A DNA stretch of 61,564 nt, the filler included, from Piptocephalis cylindrospora (lineage: Eukaryota), in the NCBI GenBank assembly GCA_003614145.1. It is 9 parts of 9 records of this genome, joined end to end, with 100 filler letters (N's around TTAATTAATTAA, not from the genome) between each part and the next. Parts side by side here need not be neighbours in the genome. Positions count along the whole stretch, not along the records: positions 1 to 6,786 come from KZ988254.1; 8 more parts are not named here. One strand, 5' to 3'. Shown here piece after piece: positions 1 through 21,188 of this stretch; the first letter of the stretch is position 1; the number at the start of each line of letters is the position of its first letter. Made by a program: the position numbers and the translations under genes. The notes under the pieces were generated by a model that saw only the letters and a program-made list of their open reading frames with translations, searched no databases and was not told the origin of the DNA.

Positions 1-171
1 GGGCAAAAAAGAGCATGGGGTTGCGAAGAGCACACTTTAAATTACATCCTCAGGAGGAAAACACCTTGCTCGTTGGGAACAGTGTGGATGTTCTATTCTA
101 TCACCTCCACCCTCCTCCCTTTTCTGGCTCGCTTAGTCCTTGCCGTCCCGGAAAGACCCTTGCGTCCAGAT

Positions 172-1542
172 ATGCTGTCCATAGCTAGAGTCCTCCCCAA
201 TTTATGGCGATCTTTCATGCCCAGGCCACTCTCCACCATGACTGGATCCACCGCCTCCGTTCTCCCCATGCTCAAGGCCCGCCTAGACCTATTGGGGACA
301 GAGACCGAGATTCAGGGATTGAACCGGAGACAGCTGCTGCTTCAGACTGCCCCTACACTCTCCTCTTATGACCTTTCCCAGTTACTCCGAAAAGACGCAG
401 ACCCTCTCGACCTGACCGCCGAGGATGTCGGCTCCCTGATCCTTGGTCTATGCCCTGCCCGATCCGTCGAAGCCTTTCGTCTTCTGCAGCCCTATCAGAC
501 CTTCCCAGGACGCCGATCCCGTACACCCTATCATGCCTTGGTGTATGGTCTTGCCAGAACAGGGGAGCTCACCAAGGCTGAGCGCGTCCTCCAAGCCCTT
601 AGTGCGGACCCATACATCACTAAGACTGCGGGGGCTCCCTATGCTGTCTATCTAAAGGAGTTATCACAGATTAAAGGCCCTGAATTTGCCCTGAAATGGT
701 GGATGAGCTGGTGTGCGGCCCACTTAAAGGACAAGTCCACCAATGGAATGATCATTCGCAATACCGTTTTATCCCTTCTTCTCAAGGTGCCCGGGAACCT
801 TGGTAAGAGCGAATGGATACGACATCAGCTTTCAGACTCTGCGAAAAACAGGAATACCTTTGGGATGAACCTGGTTCTAAGGACCGTTGTGAAAGCAAAG
901 AAGGAGTGGGAGGACCGGATTCATGCCGTCCTCGCTTCCAACTCTCATTTGAACTGGGATGCCACTACATATACCATACTGATCGATACGGCCTCTCGCC
1001 ATAAAAGATGGGATTTGGCAGAGGCATGGTACGACAAAGCCTTAGAGGAGGATGGTCTTTGCCCGGACACGGCCCTCTTGACGGTCATAGTAGGGTACCT
1101 TCTCAGCCGTAGGCTGGATAAGAAGGCCACAGAGGCCCAGATAGAGCTGATGCGTATGGCCCAGGTTCCCATCGTCGATGCTGGGGTATGTCGCCTGTGG
1201 ATACGGCATTATGGTGCCAGGAGGCAGCTGTCCGAAGCCAAGCGTATATGGAAAATGGCATGTGAAGCCGGGGTGGTAGATACGAAGCACCAAATGTACG
1301 ATGCCATGCTAAAAGCATTCATTGTCTCGGATAAATATGCATCCTGGCCCTCGTGGTTGAAGGAGCAGCAGGGAGTGCTTGGGGCACAGAGCGCCCTGTC
1401 CCCCTCTTCTTCCCTCTCTCGATCCCTCCTCAGCCTTCCTGAACGCGTTCGTCGAGGCGTGATTCGGCGTCAAGCATCACCAGCTGCTTCTACCCGCTTC
1501 CTTCCTTCTCCATATGCCGTCACATCCACGACCTTTCCCTGA
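172..1542 (+). CDS. Pentatricopeptide-repeat (PPR) protein, probably mitochondrial
   Basis: PPR-like motifs (TPYHALVYGLARTGELTKAERVL; TTYTILIDTASRHKRWDLAEAWYDKALEEDGLCPD; YDAMLKAF). ATG172 gives an R/S/L-rich presequence-like N-terminus (MLSIARVLPNLWRSFMPRPLST). Start codon uncertain. Confidence 0.75.
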   Translation: MLSIARVLPNLWRSFMPRPLSTMTGSTASVLPMLKARLDLLGTETEIQGLNRRQLLLQTAPTLSSYDLSQLLRKDADPLDLTAEDVGSLILGLCPARSVEAFRLLQPYQTFPGRRSRTPYHALVYGLARTGELTKAERVLQALSADPYITKTAGAPYAVYLKELSQIKGPEFALKWWMSWCAAHLKDKSTNGMIIRNTVLSLLLKVPGNLGKSEWIRHQLSDSAKNRNTFGMNLVLRTVVKAKKEWEDRIHAVLASNSHLNWDATTYTILIDTASRHKRWDLAEAWYDKALEEDGLCPDTALLTVIVGYLLSRRLDKKATEAQIELMRMAQVPIVDAGVCRLWIRHYGARRQLSEAKRIWKMACEAGVVDTKHQMYDAMLKAFIVSDKYASWPSWLKEQQGVLGAQSALSPSSSLSRSLLSLPERVRRGVIRRQASPAASTRFLPSPYAVTSTTFP

Positions 1543-3099
1543 ACATTTTTCCCCCATATTTTATCATTAGACTATTGACTTGACTGTATCAACGTAGGGT
1601 GTCCATTCCGCATATCGTGTATCTAATCTTTTGAATGGTCAGGACTGGTCTCTCCAGATGAGTCTAAGGTCGATCGATACTGCTGGACTAGATGGCAACG
1701 GAAGGATGGGGTTGGGCATGGGGCCTTCGCAAAGCAATGTCCAGACATATGGTTTTTAGTCCAGCAAACTACTGTGCACTCGTCTGGCTCTCTTATTATC
1801 CATTAGTCTCCCTGCAACGCCGAGAATTTTCTCTTTCTCCTTCTGTTTAGGATCCCGGGATACAGCAGTATATCCAGAGTATCTGATTATCTCATCTTGT
1901 GGATGCAAATATCTGAGCTCTGAACACGATACTTTCGCTATTTAACTAGGATGAAAAGCGATAGTATGGTTAGTACCTATCGCCCTAGAATAAGGAAGGC
2001 AACGTTGGGAAGGATAAAGGCCAGCGAATACAAGAATGGTTGATTTTATCTGATCTGTATCAGGCTCATGTTTCCCTCTATGGCCATCTAATAGAGAAGT
2101 CCTTTTAGAAAAAGGTGTAAAGGAAATAGACACACGGTTTATCTACCTATTTTGAGCGTCTTCTATAACGTATACCGTTCTGGTGAATGCAGGAGCAAAC
2201 CAATCATTACCCATCCTATCTAGATGGAAAGTAAGGTGAGGTATTACCGGGGAAAGTGCCCCTCTTCAATGTGATTCCCAAAGCGAGAAACGGACTCTAC
2301 AACCCCATCGTCCCTTCATGTCCAGGCTAGACACTGGAGTATCTTTCGTCCATGCCATCATGTACCTTTCTGCACATTTATCCTTTGGCGCTGTGCAAGT
2401 TTATCTACTAATTCACATGCTGTCTCTTTCGCCCTGTTCTCCCTTCATCCTCTGAACAAGCATCTCGCACTTTGTAAGAGATCGTAAGGCTGCACCAATC
2501 ATCTCATACGTTTCCCTAGCCACCTAGCCATCCTCTCCAAGAATACTACGCTCCTCATGCACATGTGAGCCGCTTTCCATTCATCTCTCAAGTATGGGGG
2601 TCAGAGTTATGGACATAATCACCCACCAGTTTCCCAGCCGTGAACGCCAAGGACCTCATTGATCAGGAAGCCTGGGGCTTGTGAGACTATCGCAAACTTT
2701 GACACAATGGCCCAGTAACTGAAACTCCGTATAGAGAACGAGCATCCTATTCTGGAGATCCAATTCCCTGCTCATTCCTGTGGGAGTGTAGTCCCATCAA
2801 ACGAGGCATAGCGGAGTTGGCATTTTCATCCTGTCCTAAGGCCATCCAGGATGGAAGAGGTCATTTAGATACAAGATGGGAAGAAAAGTGCCACAGTCGA
2901 ATCCTTCCAATGCATCTCCTTGCTTGATGGAAGTGGCGGAGTTTTAAACATTGAGCGGACTTCAAACATAAAGAAGTCCGCTGCGGAGATTTATAGGGTC
3001 TGGAGTACCTTGAATACGGAGGGTAATTCTATCACCTCTCTCCAGAACGGTTCCAGCCCTACATAAAGGGTCACGGTGGGTGCTCACGATCCCCATCCA

Positions 3100-3420
3100 C
3101 TCTTAGATTCCTTCTCCTACATTTTCTCCTTCCCACCTCCCCTCTCCTCTCTCCTTTCCTCTTTCCCTTTCTGCTTTTTCCGCAAAGACCTTTCAACAGT
3201 CTCTCCTTTGCCTGGTGCATTCCTCCCTCCTCTCACAAAGATCCCTTCACGGGCACTCCCCACCTTTCCCTCTTCCGCTTCCGCTTCCTCTCCCCCTCCC
3301 TCTTCCGCCTCTCCCCTCCTTTCATCTTTCCCTCCCCATCTCCCCCCTTCCTTTCCCTTTCCTCTCCATCTCCCCTTCCGCTGCCTAGCACAGTCCATCC
3401 CTTTTCTCTCATCAAACTCT
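3100..3420 (+). promoter_or_regulatory. Pyrimidine (CT)-rich promoter/5'UTR tract upstream of the micro-exon gene
   Basis: About 320 nt of strongly C/T-rich sequence directly before ATG3454. CT-rich tracts are common in fungal core promoters and 5'UTRs. Confidence 0.4.
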
Positions 3421-3453
3421 CTTAAAGGACGTCCATCCCCTTCTCGATTGACC

Positions 3454-6400
3454 ATGAAGCTCGCCCGCTGCCTCTTATCAATCCTCCTCTTTTCCTTATG
3501 CATAGATTATATCTCTGCGACACCGCCGAGTGTTCATTCGGGTAAGTGGCCATATGATAAGCGAATTTTACACATGCTTCTGCTCCTCACGATCTGCTTA
3601 CATTATCCTCTTACCCTATTTGACACGTAGTTCCGGGTGGCGGAAAAGGCTTTCATCCAGTTCAAACAGTTAAGAGTGAGTTAGAAAGGATAGGGGGAGG
3701 GGTGGGGAGGTTGGTGTCCATACACATAGTCGGATACACATGAGACTTCGTTTCCTCCATTTACCTTATCATTGTGATGGTAAGGATCATCCACTCACTC
3801 CCATACCACCCTACCCCATAAAACATTCCAAAGCTGGTTGGAATAGAGTGTTTGTAAGTTGTACATTTTGTATCTTTTCTAGTGGTTGTCTGCTTCTTAA
3901 AACTTATCACCATTTTGCCTTGCTCCTTCCCCTCCTATCAGAACAAGCCCGTAAGGACCCCGGATTCTTCAGGTAGGTTCCATGTAATATTTCCTTTCCT
4001 CTAGCTCCTTCTTTACTCGAGCTTACATTTCTTTTACCATCTTTAATCTGCCGTAAAAGTTCCAGTTAATAGCCGAGCAAGTAGTGTTTCAGGTCATTCT
4101 GGTACAATTACAGCACCGGTGGCGCCAAAGGTTCGTTAGCAAGTCGTCTTCTCTTTGTGACATGTCTTTTTATTCCTTGTTATTGAATGTGTGAGGAGAG
4201 GGTAAATAATTATTCATCATGCACTTATCATGACTCATCATCGCCTCCTGAATGAACAGGTATATCTTCTTTGGGCCTATTTCCTCCCTTCTTCTGTGCT
4301 AATCTTGAGGCCCTTTCCCTTTATTTTTTTTACTGACGCACTCCCTTCCTTTCCCCATCATCGAAAAATAGCCCAAGAATCAACGTTTTACTTTCTTCAA
4401 TGTAAGTTTGACTAAGAATTCCTGTACTTTATTCATTGGGGATGACAAACACGTGCTTTCTCCATATCTCTTGCCTTTCTACTGACACATTTACATTTAC
4501 TCTTTCTCATCTTTGTACCAACAGAAGAATAAGAAAGCCCCTGTAGGTTTGACTAGGCGTTTCCGTATTCTGTCTCTTAGGGATTCTAAGCACGCGTTCT
4601 CCATATTCCTTTACCTTTCTACTAACAACACATTTCCGCTCCTCTTCCTTCTTGGATCACCGAATGGCTGGACAGCTCAAGACGGAAGCAGAGGTAAGTT
4701 TGTCTAATTGCTTCCATATTTTATTTCCTGGGGATATGAATTGTATTGGTGCTTTACCTTTCTACTAAACCCGCTCTCGTCACCCCTTCCTTCACTATTG
4801 AATCAATAGCAATTCAAAGATGATTTTAACGCTCGTTCTGACCAGGTAGGTTAGGCTCGTCATTTCTATGTTCTATCCCTCGAGGATTGTGGGCATATAC
4901 TACCTCTTTGCTTTTCTACTGACACTCTCCATCTTTCCTTTTTGGGCCATTAAAATGATAAGGGTTCCGAGACAGCCTCATTGGTGAGTTTGGTAGATCG
5001 TTTTCGTATCCTACCCCTCGGGAAATATGGAGATGCGCTATTTCCTCATCTTCTTGATTTTTCATTGACACACTCTCCTTCCTCTTCCCTCATTTTTCGC
5101 TCAACAGAATAGTAAACACTCCGGATCTTCGCAAGAGGCGGTAAGCTTGGCTAGCCATTTCCATACTTTCTCTCCGACATTTTATTAACATGTTACCATC
5201 CCTCTTTCCTTTTCATTGGACCAATGATGAATGGATACCCAATTTACGATCATAGGTATGTTTGGCTATTTACCTTCATAATACATTTATCAGGGGACAT
5301 GATTGTATACCAGTTTCTATCCTTTTACTGATACTTTCCCGTCATTCCCTTTATTATCATTGACCTAATAGAACCTCCGACAGCAGTTTAATGAAAAGGC
5401 TCAACAGGTAGGTGTGATTAGCCCTTCACATATTCTATCTTCTGGGAAATATGGACATGCATTATCTCTTTACTTTTCTACTGACAAATTCTCGCGCCAC
5501 CTTCTCATTGTTGGGCTAATGGAAGCAGAACAACCCTGCTTCCCGGGGAACAAAGGTAAGATTTTCCGGGCTTTTACATTTCATTGCTTCTGGGGGTTAG
5601 GATAGTGAACAGTGTTCTACCTTTAATGCTGCAAGAATAACTGTTCTCTCTATCCTTTTTGTATTGATTACTTTACTGACGCCTCTGGATCCTCTTCCTT
5701 CATCCTTGGATTAATAGAGGGGAAGAGAAGATGATACTGAATCAGTGGCAACGGTAGGTTCCTATGCTTTCCAGAAAATTTATTTCGGGGATTATGGAGA
5801 TATGTGATGAATTACCTGCGGCTTTAGGACGTTGTTAACGTGCAATCCCCTAATTTATTTTGACCTTGCTTTATTTTCTAACGGATTCTTACCTCATCTT
5901 TAAACTGGTAGGAACAAGCTGATACCACCAACCTCGGACCCAATGTGAGACAATTTGACCTTTTATCTATCCTTTTCTCATTTTGCTGACTCTCTCGGGA
6001 CTTTCTCCATTATTGGACCACTAGAAAAAATCAAAGACCGCTGTAAGTTTCTGTGCCCTTTTCCATTCGGATTACCTTAAAAGCTATGGGGATGAGTGAT
6101 GGTCCACCTATGAGCACGCAGAGTGCTTCTGGTTTATTTTAGTTTCCTTTTAATCGTTTCTTTTACTCACTTCATTATCACCCCATCCCGCGCGATAACG
6201 CTATTCAATACTTTTACGCGTCTGGATGAATGCATTACATGCGATATAAAGAATCTTGCACGCCAACAACAAATGGATAGTGGGCGGCATAGGCAAGAGC
6301 AAGGTGTAAGTGCAAAGTGGGCTATCTTTGGGTGGTAAATGGGCTGTGACTTGCCTTGAGGAAACGTTTATATGAAGAAGTATCCCAGTTTTTCGAAGTT

Positions 6401-6755
6401 ATATGCAATTATCTAATCACTACCCTCTTTCATCCCCCTATTTCTTTATCTCTTTACGTCATTCAAGCGCGATGTAAGTATAGTTTTGATGTCATGCAAT
6501 TTCCCCTTAAGATTGCTTGAGCATTCTCATAACTTGGGATTAAACTAACCTATATTATTCTCATTTTCTTTCTCCTCCTTTCATCATCCCGCCATGCAGT
6601 TGATACGCAAGGTAATTATAATTATAATCTTGATATTGTTCTGAAATCCCCTTTCACAACGTTACTTGAGCGCACTTGACGTGGGATTGGGCCAATCTAT
6701 TCTCCTCTCACGCCTTTCCCTTCACGGTATCGAACACTCTTAGGCGCAAGCTATG
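3454..6755 (+). CDS. Secreted micro-exon gene (3' partial, runs off the contig)
   Basis: Exon 1, 3454-3541, encodes a signal peptide (MKLARCLLSILLFSLCIDYISA-TPP). Tentative exons 3631-3675, 3834-3853, 3942-3972 and 4060-4130 bring the total to 255 nt (phase 0). Phase-0 micro-exons follow at 4372-4401, 4525-4542, 4676-4693, 4810-4845, 4963-4983, 5108-5140, 5372-5407, 5529-5555, 5718-5753, 5912-5944, 6025-6042, 6252-6305, 6468-6473, 6600-6611 and 6744-6755, each flanked by AG and GTRAG/GTAGG/GTAAT. Confidence 0.8.
4260..6043 (+). repeat. Degenerate tandem array of intron+micro-exon units (about 100-200 bp period)
   Basis: Introns share the pattern GTA(A/G)GTTTG..TA...TTCC.TA.T.T.T...GGGA.ATG...TTTTCTACTGACAC...CTCTTCCTT...TTGGA.CAATAG. 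Confidence 0.75.
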
Positions 6756-6786
6756 GTAAGCACTTATCGCGCAGGAGTAGGGTATT

Positions 6787-6886
6787 NNNNNNNNNNNNNN
6801 NNNNNNNNNNNNNNNNNNNNNNNNNNNNNNTTAATTAATTAANNNNNNNNNNNNNNNNNNNNNNNNNNNNNNNNNNNNNNNNNNNN
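6787..6886. other. Artificial contig linker
   Basis: N44-TTAATTAATTAA-N44 (stop codons in all six frames). Confidence 0.98.
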
Positions 6887-7425
6887 CCTCCCTCGTGAAC
6901 CCTCCCCTGATTAAGATACCCTTTGATAAGAATTGATTCCAGTTAAGAACACGTCCCCAAGTCTCATTTTGCCGATCCAAGATTCCTCAAGATAAAGAAA
7001 GCCAAGCCCTGATTAAGATTTCCAAGACTAGATTTCAAGCCCTTCTAATTCCATCGTGAGATTCAGATCTCAATTTCCAACATAACAGTAGAAATATCAG
7101 CACGCTTTTGTGAGGCTGTGTATTATTAGGGAAAATTACAACCTTCCCTTTTTCCTAAAAGTTTTCACAAATTCGTTTGAAAAAAGGTTCAAGAAACTTT
7201 TCTCATAACATCGTTGCTTCCATGGACTTCCGATCCCTCCTATTTTCTCCATTTTCCTCCATTTATCCTCCCATTTCGCCATCGTTCCTCTTTCAATATA
7301 GCGGATGGACAGTATGTATCATAGTTGCTGAATGAGGATGATTTAAGTAAGAAAAGTGTACAAAAAAGACCGCAGTTTATTTTGTCTATTGCTTCTAAAC
7401 CATGATCTTGTAAAGCATGCGGAAC

Positions 7426-9513
<2,088 letters not shown>

Positions 9514-9988
9514 GCCAGTCTAGGCGAGTAGTTTAAGGCTCCAGTGAGGGAGATAAAGCTAATGAATGACACCTTTGGAAGACAACAAAGGGCAAGAGAA
9601 GGTAAGAAGAAAGCAGGCTGATCAATGAGTCGATGGTCAGTGGCGTTGCTCCTTTATATAAAGCCCAAGAATTGGGTTGGCTTATCACACACGCACTATC
9701 CCCAAGAAGCGTCTGACTAGAGGACGTGAGACAATGATGGGCGATTAGGTCAGTGAGACTGTTAAAGTTTGCAGACACATTTGATGTACGTCTATGTATA
9801 AACCCGCGAGGATAGTCGATTATGTCAGCCAAAAATCATATTGAAAATGATTTCTATTGGACAGCCTGGTTTGTCCATATGTAGGGGATAACTCTGCAGA
9901 ATTAGCTATAGTTAACTCGCCAACACTCGCCCCTCTCCCGACCTCGCATTTACTTTTAAAGATGGTTTCCATATACTTTGTTTCCCCA

Positions 9989-10056
9989 AGCAGACACTGT
10001 GTTCGGATGCCCATCTGCCTACCCCACTGGGGAAAATAAAATGGTTCTATCATCAT
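9989..10056 (+). mobile_element. 5'-truncated copy of a short (ATC)n-tailed retroposon with a 19-bp target-site duplication
   Basis: CATATACTTTGTTTCCCCA occurs at both 9970-9988 and 10057-10075. The insert ends CCCCACTGGGGAAAATAAAATGGTTCTATCATCAT. Near-identical sequence lies at 20787-20856 (-). Confidence 0.8.
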
Positions 10057-12001
10057 CATATACTTTGTTTCCCCACAACATAATGCTTTCTCAAAACCAG
10101 ATTATATTTTTAACATGTATCCAAGCCTCATTTGTGAACCGAAAGGGGTGGATAGCTGAGTGGTTGAGCAGCTACTATTCTACCCAACATCATGGATTAT
10201 TCAATCCTCGGGGACCTCCACATCTCAGCCATTTTCTCTCTTTCTGACCTCCTAGCTTTGATTCTCAAGTCTTGGCTTCAAAAATCCATTCATTTTATCA
10301 ACTCGCTTATTAGAGTTAGCGTTACTGTCTGCAAGGATTCTCTTTCATTATGGGTGTGTGTTGCAAAAAGCTATGCAATACGCTATCCTCTGCTCTCTCC
10401 TAATGATGTCCGCACATCGGAAGAGTGATATTTTCCGGATGAGATAAAGGTGCGTGTATGGCGTGTATGTGATGTGTGCGTATATGCATCTCTATGCGCG
10501 CTTTCAAGGAAGCATCGGATGGCTGAAGCGCACTAGCAACTTAGAGGACGTGTACGGGAGTAAGACTGGGCCTGAAGTAGTCTGACCATGGGATGCATGC
10601 TTGAGAGAAGCTTACTCTAGAGGCGCGACGACCTGGAATTGACCTGAGAAAAGAAACGCTCCCACTCCTAGATTCGCCCTTCCGTTTCTCTCCTCTTTTT
10701 TCACCTTTGGTTCTCCCTTGGTTCACATTTCTGTTTGTTCCTTGATATACTTTTTAGATTGCCATAATTCTTATTTTCGATATCTTGCCGCAGGCGACTG
10801 AATAGACTCCTAATAAAGTATGCTCTGGTTCTTGGAGACAGAACTATCACTATATTTTACCTCAAATAAGATACGCTACAGTGACAGAGATCAGCCATCG
10901 TGAGATGACCAAGACTTATCACTATCCTCGCAGATATCTACATTCCCTGCCGACATGTTATCAGTAAGGGTCGATTTGTATCTCTAGAAAGGCCTCATAG
11001 CCACAACATAGCCAATATATCAGGCATGTCTTCCATAACCATCTTGAAGCGATCCTCGGTCAAAGCGACCAGTAAGCACCGCGCCTTTGTGCTACGGGAG
11101 CTGTAGCTCTTTTTTCGCATGTACAGACCCAGTGTGCATTTACCTCGGTCTGATCCATCCTGCCATGATCAACTAACAGGAGGATAGCCTTCCTCTCCCT
11201 CTCTACTGGAGGAGGATCCTTCATTTACTCTCTAAACCACCCTTCATTAGAGGTGTGGAAGATACAGATGTGTTGCACACATGTGGGAGCAGATCAGCTC
11301 CCAGAATTAGATCTATAGATCCAGAGTCATTGTCCTCAGATAAAGACCCTCCCCGACATAATTTAGTGGTCCTCTGCTGGCCTCGGATATGGGGGGCACG
11401 CACTTTCATTTAAGGTACCAGAGCGGAGAGAGAACAAGGAGACCTTGTCAGATCCCCCACCCCTCATAGCCAGCTCATAAAAGCGGGCCCTTCCCCAAAC
11501 GGCGGCGTAGATGAGGAAGAGGAGGATCCAGGTCCAGGTTCAGGTCCAATGAGGTCTACTTCGCCATAGGACAGGGGTGGGCTGTGGAGGAGCCTGTGTA
11601 ACATGATAACAATACCAACCTTCTCCACCATTATATCACCGCCATATCCATCGGTACAAGCAGTCCTCTCACACGGTGTGTGTGTGGAGCGGGAAGTGAA
11701 CGAGAATGTAGAGCCTCATCGCTATGTTGTATCCACACCCTAAGTCACTCAAGGAGAACCAGGTGAGACGAGGGAATGACGGGGGTCAGGTGGGAAAGAA
11801 TGGTATAAGTATTAGGTGGCCTTTCTCTCTCTCACTCTCCGCGCCCCCCGCTCTCCATCTCCATTTCTCTCTCCCCTCACCACTCGCTCCATCTGCCCAT
11901 CCCCGAGGCCATTACCTTCCTTTGCCTTTTTGAGGAGCATACTAAAGAAAACGTACCTACCCTCCTCTTCCGTACGCCCTACCCTCCCACAAAGAAACCT
12001 G

Positions 12002-13580
12002 ATGGACGTAGTCCAAGAAGTAGAAGAGGAGCTCCGTCTCCTCACTCAGAAGCAGCAGAAGACGGCTGATCTGACTGACGCTCGACTAAAGGACATGGTG
12101 GCCTCTCTCCTCTCGGCTGCTGACACCCTAACTGAAAGTAGGTTCTGAAGCGGGAATGCATGGCACGCCCTAGCCTTGTGATGGAGAGAGGGGACAACCA
12201 AAGCAGTTTCGATCTAGGCACCCACTCACCCGCCCCCCAATCCTTCGTTTAGGCAAGGAAAAGGGCCTAGAAGTACTGGGGAAGTTGCACGCGGATACCA
12301 AGACCATGACCACTACTCTCAACTCTCAACACAGAGATTTGTATACCTCCTCTGGTCGGTACATCAAATTCCTCGAAAAGGTATGTCTCACCCGCTGAAT
12401 ACGGTATAAGGGGGGGGATGCACGCACTGACTGATTTCATCCCATCTAGAAATTTGATGGAGATCTCGATGTGGGTTACACTGGAGTACTGGATAATCGT
12501 CTGTCAACAGTACGTGAAGCCGTGATGGTTCATTTGCTCTCCACAGGCCATTTTGACCTAGCAGACCAGTACACCCAGGTAAGCCATTCAATACGGATAA
12601 TACCTCAAGGCTCATCCTCTTCCCTCATGTCCACTAATCACGATCATCAACCGTTGCTGTAGGACAACTCAGCTAGTATCCCCTCAGCCCAAAGAGAAGG
12701 ATACAAGTTGTTAAATAGCATTGTCCTGGCGCTCAGAGGCCGTAATGTCCTCCCCGCCCTGGAATGGGCCACTGAGCAAGCCACCATTCTTGAGACCACG
12801 GCGCCCCCTGGCCAGCCTTCGCTCCTATTCCAGCTGCACTCCCTGCGATATCTACAGATCCTCCAGGAATCTGTCCCTCAGGCTATTCATTATGCCCAAA
12901 AACATCTTGCAGTCTGGTCAAAGGGCCAAGAAGTTATCCTTCGTCGACTCATGTGTGCTGCCCTCTACACAGGCGGCGGGAGCGGAAGCGGGAGTGGAAG
13001 CGGGAGGTCCCTTGGGCTGATGGGGGGCAAAGGGGTCAGACGGCCGAAAAAGTACACCCGCATGGGGGGCTCCCGAGAATGGGAGGACGCGGAGCGGGGA
13101 ATCCGTGAAGGATTTTGTCGAGTGATCGGCGTGGCTGGTGAAAGCCCCCTGGCGACTACGTAAGTATCCCCCTTGTCTTTTTCCCCTCGTTTCACATGAA
13201 CATCCCACCCTTTCCTAAATAACAATAATAACCCCAATTCTCTTCTCCTATCAGACTCTCCATCGGAACCTTGGCTCTTCCGCGAATCTTGAAGATGGCC
13301 AAGGTGAAGCAGGTCAACAAGGCAGAGTGGACCTCGAACAATGAGCTTCCCGTGGAGATCCCCCCCTGCCCGACTCCGCCCACTTTCACTCGGTCTTTGT
13401 GTGCCCTGTGACCAAGGAGCAGTCGGATGAGTCCAACCCTCCCCCAAGAGACTCCCGTGCGGGCATGTCGTTAGCTCGGTAAGCATCCAAAAGCTCGCCA
13501 AAGGCCCCAGTGCCAAGGTCAAGTGTCCTTACTGCCCCAGCCAGTACTTTACCACGGATACTGTTCGGGTCTACTTTTAA
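12002..13580 (+). CDS. RMD5: CTLH/GID E3 ligase RING subunit (RMD5/GID2/RMND5)
   Basis: LisH/CTLH/CRA region ([21 protein letters not shown]) and degenerate [30 protein letters not shown]. Exons 12002-12137, 12253-12380, 12450-12578, 12663-13159, 13255-13580. Two apparent frameshifts lie in C-runs at 13360-13366 and 13441-13445. Confidence 0.88.
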
Positions 13581-13665
13581 AGAGTGCAAGGGGCCTAGCC
13601 AGGACACCAAATGTGGATGGATTCTAGCTAGTATGTGTGTGTGTGTGAAACGAGGGGAAAAAGAC

Positions 13666-20786: not shown

Positions 20787-20911
20787 TGATGATGATAAAA
20801 CCATTTTATTTTCCCCAGTGGGGTAGGCAGATGGGCATCCGAACACAGTGTCTGCTAGTATAGCTGGCATGTGTGGTACCAGGAGCACTATGCTCCCGAC
20901 GCGTACCCTAT
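20787..20911 (-). mobile_element. Longer (about 125 bp) copy of the (ATC)n-tailed short repeat
   Basis: Minus strand reads ATAGGGTACGCGTCGGGAGCATAGTGCTCCTGGTACC...AGCAGACACTGTGTTCGGATGCCCATCTGCCTACCCCACTGGGGAAAATAAAATGGTTTTATCATCATCA. Confidence 0.75.
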
Positions 20912-21061
20912 GTTAAAGAATAGATGGATGGTGGCGCGTGCTGTAATCTGAGAAAGGGATGATGCATCCACAAAGGATGAGCAATTTCTGTCAATTTTTA
21001 CCTAGTTTGGATTAACATACCCTGTTCCTTGGGTGATTCCCCATAAGAAAATACGTTTTTT

Positions 21062-21188
21062 ATAGGGTACGCGTTGGAGACTCTGTCCCTAGTACCATGT
21101 ATGCCAGTCTGACTACAGGCAGTCAATGTGTTTAGATGCTCATCTGCCTATCTCACTGGGGAAAATAAAATGGGTTTATCATCATCAT
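21062..21188 (+). mobile_element. Diverged copy of the same short repeat
   Basis: ATAGGGTACGCGTTGGAGA...GATGCTCATCTGCCTATCTCACTGGGGAAAATAAAATGGGTTTATCATCATCAT. Shares its 5' boundary with the copy at 20911. Confidence 0.7.

Follow-up and report, generated by a model that had tools for sequence, protein, structure and literature searches.

Introduction

Micro-exon genes (MEGs) of Schistosoma are described as parasite genes that combine a signal peptide, a long series of tiny symmetrical exons and fast evolution (PMC4350168; 10.1101/2023.06.21.545858), and as restricted to flatworms (PMC4350168). Their introns are given as 0.1-5 kb, and alternative splicing of their transcripts is reported as demonstrated. 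In SmPoMuc, also from Schistosoma, micro-exons and introns form tandem genomic repeats in which introns are more alike than exons; the units are reported to be approximately 1 kb long and >93% identical, with few exon types (PMC2576457). Spider silk genes (Argiope MaSp2; Flag) carry iterated homologous introns between protein modules, arranged in higher-order repeat units; in the published account, these introns are on average 97.6% identical, the exons are homogenised too, and the products are structural fibre proteins encoded without micro-exons (PMC9779670).

Within single fungal genes, intron gain through expansion of a repeat of intron plus exon end has been described for Cryptococcus CNN00420, Coccidioides SOWgp and the SGD class (PMC2395259, PMC3609843). 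These repeats are reported as near-identical, with repeated exons and 4-6 copies. Micro-exons are described as barely studied in fungi (PMC12230235).

Piptocephalis cylindrospora is a biotrophic mycoparasite of the Zoopagomycota (PMC6784888). Here, an array of related introns and micro-exons of this fungus is analyzed and compared with the above systems. The array lies in a window of 61,564 nucleotides (filler included), the whole stretch of DNA that was analyzed (assembly GCA_003614145.1).

Results

Gene model and predicted product

The array comprises 12 intron units (80-162 nt) at 4260-6042 and most likely represents the middle of one predicted spliced gene, with a predicted secreted, unstructured protein as its product. 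This + strand gene starts with an ATG at 3454 and continues past 6786, its frame being open up to the contig end at 6786; a contig from run X1 reaches 1730 bases past that position. The span of 4260..6043 given in an earlier note on this DNA coincides with the array, and the gene itself is larger. The note mentioned neither the first exon with its signal-peptide-like start nor the frame-neutral design, and gene conversion was not among its two explanations. Outside the array, the following exons were modelled, of which tentative exons 2-5 (3631..4130) form the least certain section of the gene:

3454..3541, + strand: predicted exon 1 (88 nt), start codon and signal-peptide-like hydrophobic N-terminus (hydropathy)
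3631-3675, + strand: tentative exon 2, boundaries by eye, upstream intron outside the family
3834-3853, + strand: tentative exon 3, boundaries by eye, upstream intron outside the family
3942-3972, + strand: tentative exon 4, boundaries by eye, upstream intron outside the family
4060-4130, + strand: tentative exon 5, boundaries by eye, upstream intron outside the family
6252-6305, + strand: predicted phase-0 exon, 54 nt, flanking introns outside the family
6468-6473, + strand: predicted phase-0 exon, 6 nt, flanking introns outside the family
6600-6611, + strand: predicted phase-0 exon, 12 nt, flanking introns outside the family
6744-6755, + strand: predicted phase-0 exon, 12 nt, flanking introns outside the family

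In the visible part of the gene, exons of at most 36 nt that are divisible by 3 account for 339 of 648 modelled nt (52%), and those of up to 54 nt for 438 nt (68%). Mean hydropathy of the predicted product was 1.45 over residues 1-23 versus -1.25 over the remainder, which held no later hydrophobic stretch (maximum 0.41; the C-terminus lies outside the contig). The modelled chain of 216 residues is cysteine-free after the leader, hydrophilic and basic (31 K+R versus 18 D+E), with 82% disorder-type residues. The 58-residue read-through of exon 1 matched no Pfam family and, used as query, found no homologue among longer or near-length proteins; two weak unnamed matches, the better of which was 44% over a hydrophobic stretch, were set aside. 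A long C/T-rich tract (3100-3430) lies immediately upstream of the start codon.

Short contigs make up the window, and between them lie N linkers that carry a six-frame stop spacer (6787-6887 and the regions of 13667, 20527, 27377, 34219, 47900 and 54735), so that genes on either side of a linker need not be neighbours. The array is on the first contig (1-6786). On the second, a SelO exon is 99% identical to a protein assigned to P. cylindrospora, and run X2 contains both contigs; the species is thus assigned through the common assembly rather than by physical linkage, no connection between the end at 6786 and the second contig having been found. Genes identified by Pfam encode PPR proteins, SelO, a CTLH protein, Ada3, CPSF100, an IQ-repeat protein, NAD(P)H-hydrate dehydratase, an alpha/beta hydrolase, an mRNA capping enzyme, an APH phosphotransferase and an MFS transporter. 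A MITE-like element of approximately 400 nt (20787-21188) has inverted arms of about 125 nt that are 79% alike, with a solo end at 9987-10059; since the copy at 9987 draws contigs at depths in the thousands, the element is likely high-copy. Another high-copy repeat (6888-7265) marks the start of the second contig and has many variant contigs in runs X1 and X2. Of three runs guessed to be RNA, X4 gave no match on 1-6786, and X5 and X6 yielded repeats or adapter-bearing short pieces only on 6888-13660, results that speak neither for nor against expression. At 11408-12085, X5 reached an extreme depth and had loose ends resembling adapters, which suggests an artefact of amplification.

Splice frame and units of the array

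Splicing of the 12 units from 4260 to 6024 was modelled with a fixed rule, by which each intron ended at the first AG past its branch site, as taken from the alignment, and each exon at the next donor. All 12 resulting exon lengths, one of which was zero, were divisible by 3 (chance 1.9e-6): in order, 30, 18, 18, 36, 21, 33, 0, 36, 30, 36, 33 and 18 nt. The joined 309 exon bases contained 0, 1 and 13 stops in the three frames, a stop-free frame occurring in 0.2% of shuffles, and unspliced frames were open for at most 77 codons. All array junctions are in phase 0. When both strands were scanned blind, 13 of the 15 candidates for short exons within the gene were divisible by 3, versus 10 of 35 elsewhere (p 2e-4); one of the candidates in the gene, located inside exon 1, was spurious. 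Between units 5141 and 5256, AG and GT touch and no exon intervenes. The micro-exons below were all placed by the fixed rule:

4260..4371, + strand: unit 1, family-like in its 3' half only (held-out E 0.003, model positions 62-114)
4372..4401, + strand: micro-exon, 30 nt, phase 0
4402..4524, + strand: family intron, 123 nt (held-out E 2.5e-12)
4525..4542, + strand: micro-exon, 18 nt
4543..4675, + strand: family intron, 133 nt (held-out E 7.6e-14)
4676..4693, + strand: micro-exon, 18 nt
4694..4962, + strand: block A, consisting of intron 4694-4809, exon 4810-4845 (36 nt) and intron 4846-4962 (diagonal, block ranking)
4963..4983, + strand: micro-exon, 21 nt
4984..5107, + strand: family intron, 124 nt (held-out E 2e-11)
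5108..5140, + strand: micro-exon, 33 nt
5141..5255, + strand: family intron without the G-run segment (fixed rule, alignment)
5256..5525, + strand: block B, which repeats block A 562 nt downstream, consisting of intron 5256-5371, exon 5372-5407 (36 nt) and intron 5408-5525
5526..5555, + strand: micro-exon, 30 nt (27 nt with the second AG)
5556..5717, + strand: family intron, 162 nt, with a longer middle (held-out E 8.4e-7)
5718..5753, + strand: micro-exon, 36 nt
5754..5911, + strand: most diverged unit, 158 nt, assigned to the family by alignment (held-out E 1.4, not recovered)
5912..5944, + strand: micro-exon, 33 nt
5945..6024, + strand: truncated family intron of 80 nt that lacks the 5' block (held-out E 0.0029, model positions 58-122)
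6025..6042, + strand: micro-exon, 18 nt

Individual units carry traces of change. Two acceptors moved in frame: in intron 4543-4675 the homologous AG at 4663 is gone and the first AG lies 12 nt downstream, while in intron 5408-5525 the acceptor moved by 3 nt, with a second AG 3 nt further. One exon died: in unit 5141 the homologous acceptor at 5227 has no AG and the first AG adjoins the next donor, giving an exon of zero length. The interval 5228-5255 looks like a dead 28-nt exon, whose remnant would break the frame; splicing from 5141 to 5371 in a single step or in two steps yields an identical message. Internal segments were lost in two introns and gained in two. The contact of AG and GT at 5255/5256 is a possible recursive splice site left by the dead exon. 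A similar contact at 4259/4260 is a less certain candidate; the donor of unit 1 at 4260 is weak and directly follows the AG at 4258-4259.

Relatedness of the introns

Consecutive introns (4402, 4543 and 4694) had been noted to resemble each other. Their quoted starts are present and the introns align end to end; the GGGAAATATGGA motif attributed to introns 4984 and 5408 occurs at 5020-5031 and 5444-5455, and the branch-point motif recurs as described. A comparison with other introns after masking of splice motifs had been set beforehand as the test that could refute this resemblance, and array introns proved far more alike. With donor, branch and acceptor masked, the 66 array pairs gave a mean z of 2.2 relative to local shuffles, with 32% above 3. 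Control pairs (300 of 903, from 43 control introns chosen by eye rather than RNA-confirmed, one of them with a wrong end in this comparison) had corresponding values of 0.17 and 1%, and pairs of an array intron with a control (200 of 516) had 0.06 and 1%. The gene's other nine introns fell outside the family (masked mean z 0.33; 1% of 108 pairs above 3). Two of the 36 pairs of non-family introns, both neighbours, showed weak likeness (6474-6599 versus 6612-6743, z 3.4; 3542-3630 versus 3676-3833, z 3.2), perhaps reflecting older or separate duplications.

Ungapped comparison of intron bases +9..+42 yielded 47% identity in 10 units, versus 27% for shuffled sequences and 26% for the 43 controls, a level that 0 of 2000 shuffles reached. 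Differences between introns were transition-rich (ts/tv 1.74 versus 0.52 shuffled), and in 27 of 34 columns 7 or more of the 8 copies agree on purine versus pyrimidine, whereas only 6 columns keep the base itself. Held-out profiles recovered 11 of the 12 units, and elsewhere in the 61.5 kb window they detected no copy (best E 0.61). In the multiple alignment of units, intron identity was 38-62%, and the intron tree was star-like and nearly unresolved, with patchy best partners. The introns had no stable fold (z -1.6 to +2.2 in the 12 units); a conserved hairpin between +18..27 and the G-run, suspected by eye, comprised only 4 pairs with a consensus energy of -0.17 kcal/mol and was rejected.

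Contigs from DNA runs X1, X2 and X3 cover the array with letter-for-letter agreement, X1 and X2 being a possible source of the window, and no other contig at 80% likeness was found on the array among the matches listed. An assembly artefact was rejected, given the agreement of the three runs and a divergence among units too great for them to have been collapsed.

A traceable block duplication

Counterparts of units 4694 and 4846 lie at 5256 and 5408, each 562 nt downstream and with a 36-nt exon between them. The best 200-nt ungapped diagonal has this offset (identity 0.565; next best 0.46), and the pair 4694-4962/5256-5525 ranked first of 36 two-intron block pairs, with neighbouring in-register block pairs at ranks 2 and 4. 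This ranking took in the exon. Intron-only scores already paired the blocks, 5256 scoring best with 4694 (z 4.9) and 4846 with 5408 (z 7.2). Units 4543 and 5141 form the second-ranked pair and both have GA where the acceptor AG is expected. As the copy spans intron, exon and intron, it points to DNA duplication rather than intron transposition. The earlier proposal that an intron-plus-exon cassette was duplicated in tandem accords with this repeated two-intron block, with phase 0 throughout and with confinement of the family to the array in the window, and we consider a duplication origin of the array to be quite probable.

The exons of the two blocks are identical at 18 of 36 positions (50%), versus 122 of 192 (64%) for the masked introns, a difference that is not significant (p 0.14). 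Their spectra differ: 4 transitions and 14 transversions in 36 exon sites, versus 44 and 22 in 196 intron sites (transversions, p 1.5e-4). In a two-parameter model, no neutral distance fits the block exon at kappa 3.5-6 (p 0.002-0.011), kappa being 5.5 for the block introns and 4.25 for dispersed repeats in the window. Nine of its 12 residues differ, for which the neutral probability at the intron distance is 0.20. The transversion-rich spectrum, unlike that of the introns, suggests that part of the block exon was replaced faster than by intron-rate point mutation, and so selection, codon slippage or both may have driven fast replacement, in a case made by one 36-nt pair under a simple model.

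Divergence of the exons

Exons had been described as sharing little, which agreed with local alignments at the level of the null (protein p 0.47, DNA p 0.16); intron slices cut to exon lengths scored far above shuffles (0/1000). Two exon pairs earlier named as faint paralogues stood out weakly when taken by themselves (p 0.006 and 0.015, uncorrected), but not when the best of all 55 pairs was considered (p 0.21). Anchored exon identity was 30-32%, where shuffled codons gave 28% (eight tests, p 0.005 to 0.16), and third positions (25-29% matching) and ts/tv (0.41-0.50) were both at the shuffled-codon level. Intron identity did not predict exon likeness (rho 0.09). Because the exons have no detectable mutual homology, it is the introns that point to common descent of most of them.

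That exons diverged faster than introns, as had been claimed, was borne out by 8 equal-length pairs, in which identity was 83/225 (37%) for exons versus 366/710 (52%) for their upstream introns, and by the transversion excess in the one traceable pair. Acceleration of exons beyond the neutral rate is a near-even call that we place slightly on the doubtful side. Diversifying selection or intron constraint had been suggested as the cause. In the 8 equal-length exon pairs, which are saturated, non-independent and maybe out of register, pN (0.60) was below pS (0.75), which counts against a plain reading of diversifying selection; in the traceable pair, with approximately 6 synonymous sites, pN was 0.52 versus a pS of 0.40. 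Spacing within the introns does look constrained, and the cause is best shared out among faster exons, constrained introns and conversion in the past. Searches for orthologues in metagenome contigs via the neighbouring PPR protein gave 117 pattern matches, of which none were confirmed, and those via the intron pattern, which fits 2 of the 12 window units, gave no matches.

Splice geometry

The donor-to-G-run spacing is 34-38 nt (sd 1.0 nt) and that from branch site to homologous acceptor 30-41 nt (sd 3.0 nt), whereas the middle segment varies from 38 to 94 nt (sd 20.4 nt); a test for an indel deficit, which is a rough one, was significant in 3 of 4 parameter settings. CTRAC branch sites occur in 8 of 12 units versus 5 of 43 controls, and GGG at +30..+50 in 9 of 10 units versus 7 of 43 controls, the G-run lying at +34 to +38 in 9 of 10 units. 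Median distance from branch site to AG is 40.5 nt, versus 26 nt in controls, and the AG-free zone is 78 versus 51 nt. Branch sites are also distant (51-64 nt) in the non-family introns upstream of the 6- and 12-nt exons, and the distance from branch site to next donor is at least 53 nt throughout. Tiny exons need room between the branch site and the next donor, as established for vertebrate micro-exons, and by analogy the distant, strong branch sites would fit such a need. Features common to the introns may also reflect plain inheritance rather than constraint. A growth of branch distance with shrinking exons was unsupported (Spearman -0.41, p 0.11, 16 units).

Discussion

Competing explanations

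The reading that we favour, and hold to be somewhat better than an even prospect, is that the array grew by tandem duplication of intron and micro-exon and that exons were then rewritten faster than introns. The same duplication origin could instead have been followed by near-neutral, saturated exon drift in a floppy protein, with introns held by purifying selection on splicing signals and no positive selection at all. Such drift would agree with a pN below a pS at saturation, with the tight donor-to-G-run and branch-to-acceptor spacing (sd 1.0 and 3.0 nt, versus 20.4 nt for the middle) and with branch sites that are stronger and more distant than in controls. Intron substitutions, however, have a transition bias like that of dispersed repeats, transversions are as scarce in purine columns as in pyrimidine ones (59/364 versus 94/588) and no neutral distance fits the traceable exon; we regard drift as unlikely, if a serious contender. 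Gene conversion or unequal exchange might also keep introns alike while selection removes conversion across exons, as proposed for SmPoMuc and spider silk in published accounts (PMC2576457, PMC9779670). The star-like intron tree and patchy best partners are in line with this mechanism, but introns that are only 38-62% identical, versus >93% in those cases, and that lack any near-identical tract indicate that any conversion stopped long ago, which makes this explanation improbable.

Duplication of the cassette also has to be weighed against copying of the intron alone into an existing frame, by same-gene transposition or as a local introner-like element, in which case the exons were never related. 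The lack of exon homology in local alignments would follow directly, array introns are longer than controls (median 117.5 versus 81 nt), and fungal cases in which an intron, but no exon, was duplicated within a gene have been reported (PMC3609843). Nevertheless, all junctions are in phase 0, neither a copy elsewhere in the window nor a stable fold was found, and the block at offset 562 carries two introns together with the exon between them at 18/36 identity, so that we give this explanation little credence. Least probable of all, and by our estimate very much so, is an untranslated array of repeats, either decaying or non-coding, that bears motifs like those of introns. The dead exon and an exon-1 read-through without homologue are compatible with decay; against it stand the frame and stop statistics, acceptor shifts that are both multiples of 3, and GT and AG that are intact at nearly every unit despite approximately 50% divergence.

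Proposed origin and possible role

In the favoured reading, tandem DNA duplication of an intron-plus-micro-exon cassette would have built the array. Because of phase 0, every gain, loss or acceptor shift would be frame-neutral, so that the array could both expand and decay, as the two in-frame shifts and the dead exon suggest. The introns would have stayed recognisable because of an ordinary, transition-rich mutation spectrum combined with retained spacing for tiny exons (the G-run, a strong branch site approximately 40 nt before the AG and a long AG-free zone). Selection would favour exon change, or at least permit it freely, in a protein that probably meets the host fungus; a role of the predicted protein at the host interface is possible, and we assign it tentatively. 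If exons were skipped, a range of protein variants would result. Exon skipping is regarded as rare among fungi, and its use for producing variants, as considered here from predicted junctions, is rather unlikely.

A dozen copies of one intron at approximately 50% identity show which features persist beside tiny exons, and the array records in-frame shifts and losses of exons. Genes of this kind seem to escape gene callers, for which the missing record of exon 1 is weak evidence, and more may therefore be hidden in early-diverging fungi. If the reading is correct, a MEG-like gene in a fungus-parasitising fungus would represent a convergent way to vary an interface protein, its layout allowing modules of the protein to be left out or retained, as in the micro-exon genes of blood flukes.

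Comparison with known systems

In venom genes such as those for conotoxins and snake phospholipase A2, exons evolve faster than introns, and conotoxins show a transversion excess. The array resembles them in that exon divergence exceeds intron divergence; those studies compare gene copies, whereas here units inside one gene are compared. Fungal introner-like elements likewise form a family of related introns that are longer than ordinary introns, as the array introns are; unlike those elements, array introns are not near-identical, lack a stable secondary structure and were not seen in unrelated genes of the window. As in the SGD class, related introns are duplicated within one gene only, judged inside the window; the class as published requires near-identity, which is absent here. 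In contrast to the 4-6 near-identical copies with repeated exons of CNN00420, SOWgp and SGD, the array has 12 old units, all in phase 0, with exons diverged beyond recognition.

Very small symmetrical exons make up 52-68% of the visible modelled nt, in keeping with a MEG coding region that consists mostly of such exons. The original MEG description reportedly set a stricter 75% small-exon rule, of which this gene would fall short. Its layout and its predicted product are reminiscent of MEGs. Unlike MEGs, it belongs to a fungal assembly, searches with its exon-1 read-through gave no homologue that would link it to a MEG family, and its introns are short (80-209 nt) and mutually homologous; exon skipping, which is demonstrated for MEGs, would be a candidate process here. 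A literature search, which reached few subscription papers and no supplements (e.g., of introner surveys), found no fungal MEG-like gene. A fungal counterpart of MEGs that evolved independently in a haustorial mycoparasite is a rather doubtful proposal: a secreted host-contact protein of at least 15 frame-neutral, fast-evolving peptide cassettes would be diversified by exon skipping, the duplicated intron would serve as a reusable splicing module for micro-exons, and the zero-length exon would be a dead cassette.

Tandem exon-plus-intron repeats are common to the array and to the concerted repeats of SmPoMuc and silk, in which introns exceed 93% identity, as against 38-62% here. Relative to SmPoMuc, the units are small (approximately 150 nt) and approximately 50% identical, and every exon is different. 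By these analogies, the array would work like MEGs and SmPoMuc, although it belongs to neither. The tandem arrays compared here are all near-identical, whereas that of P. cylindrospora is, as judged from its sequence, old and purely phase 0, with no two exons alike.
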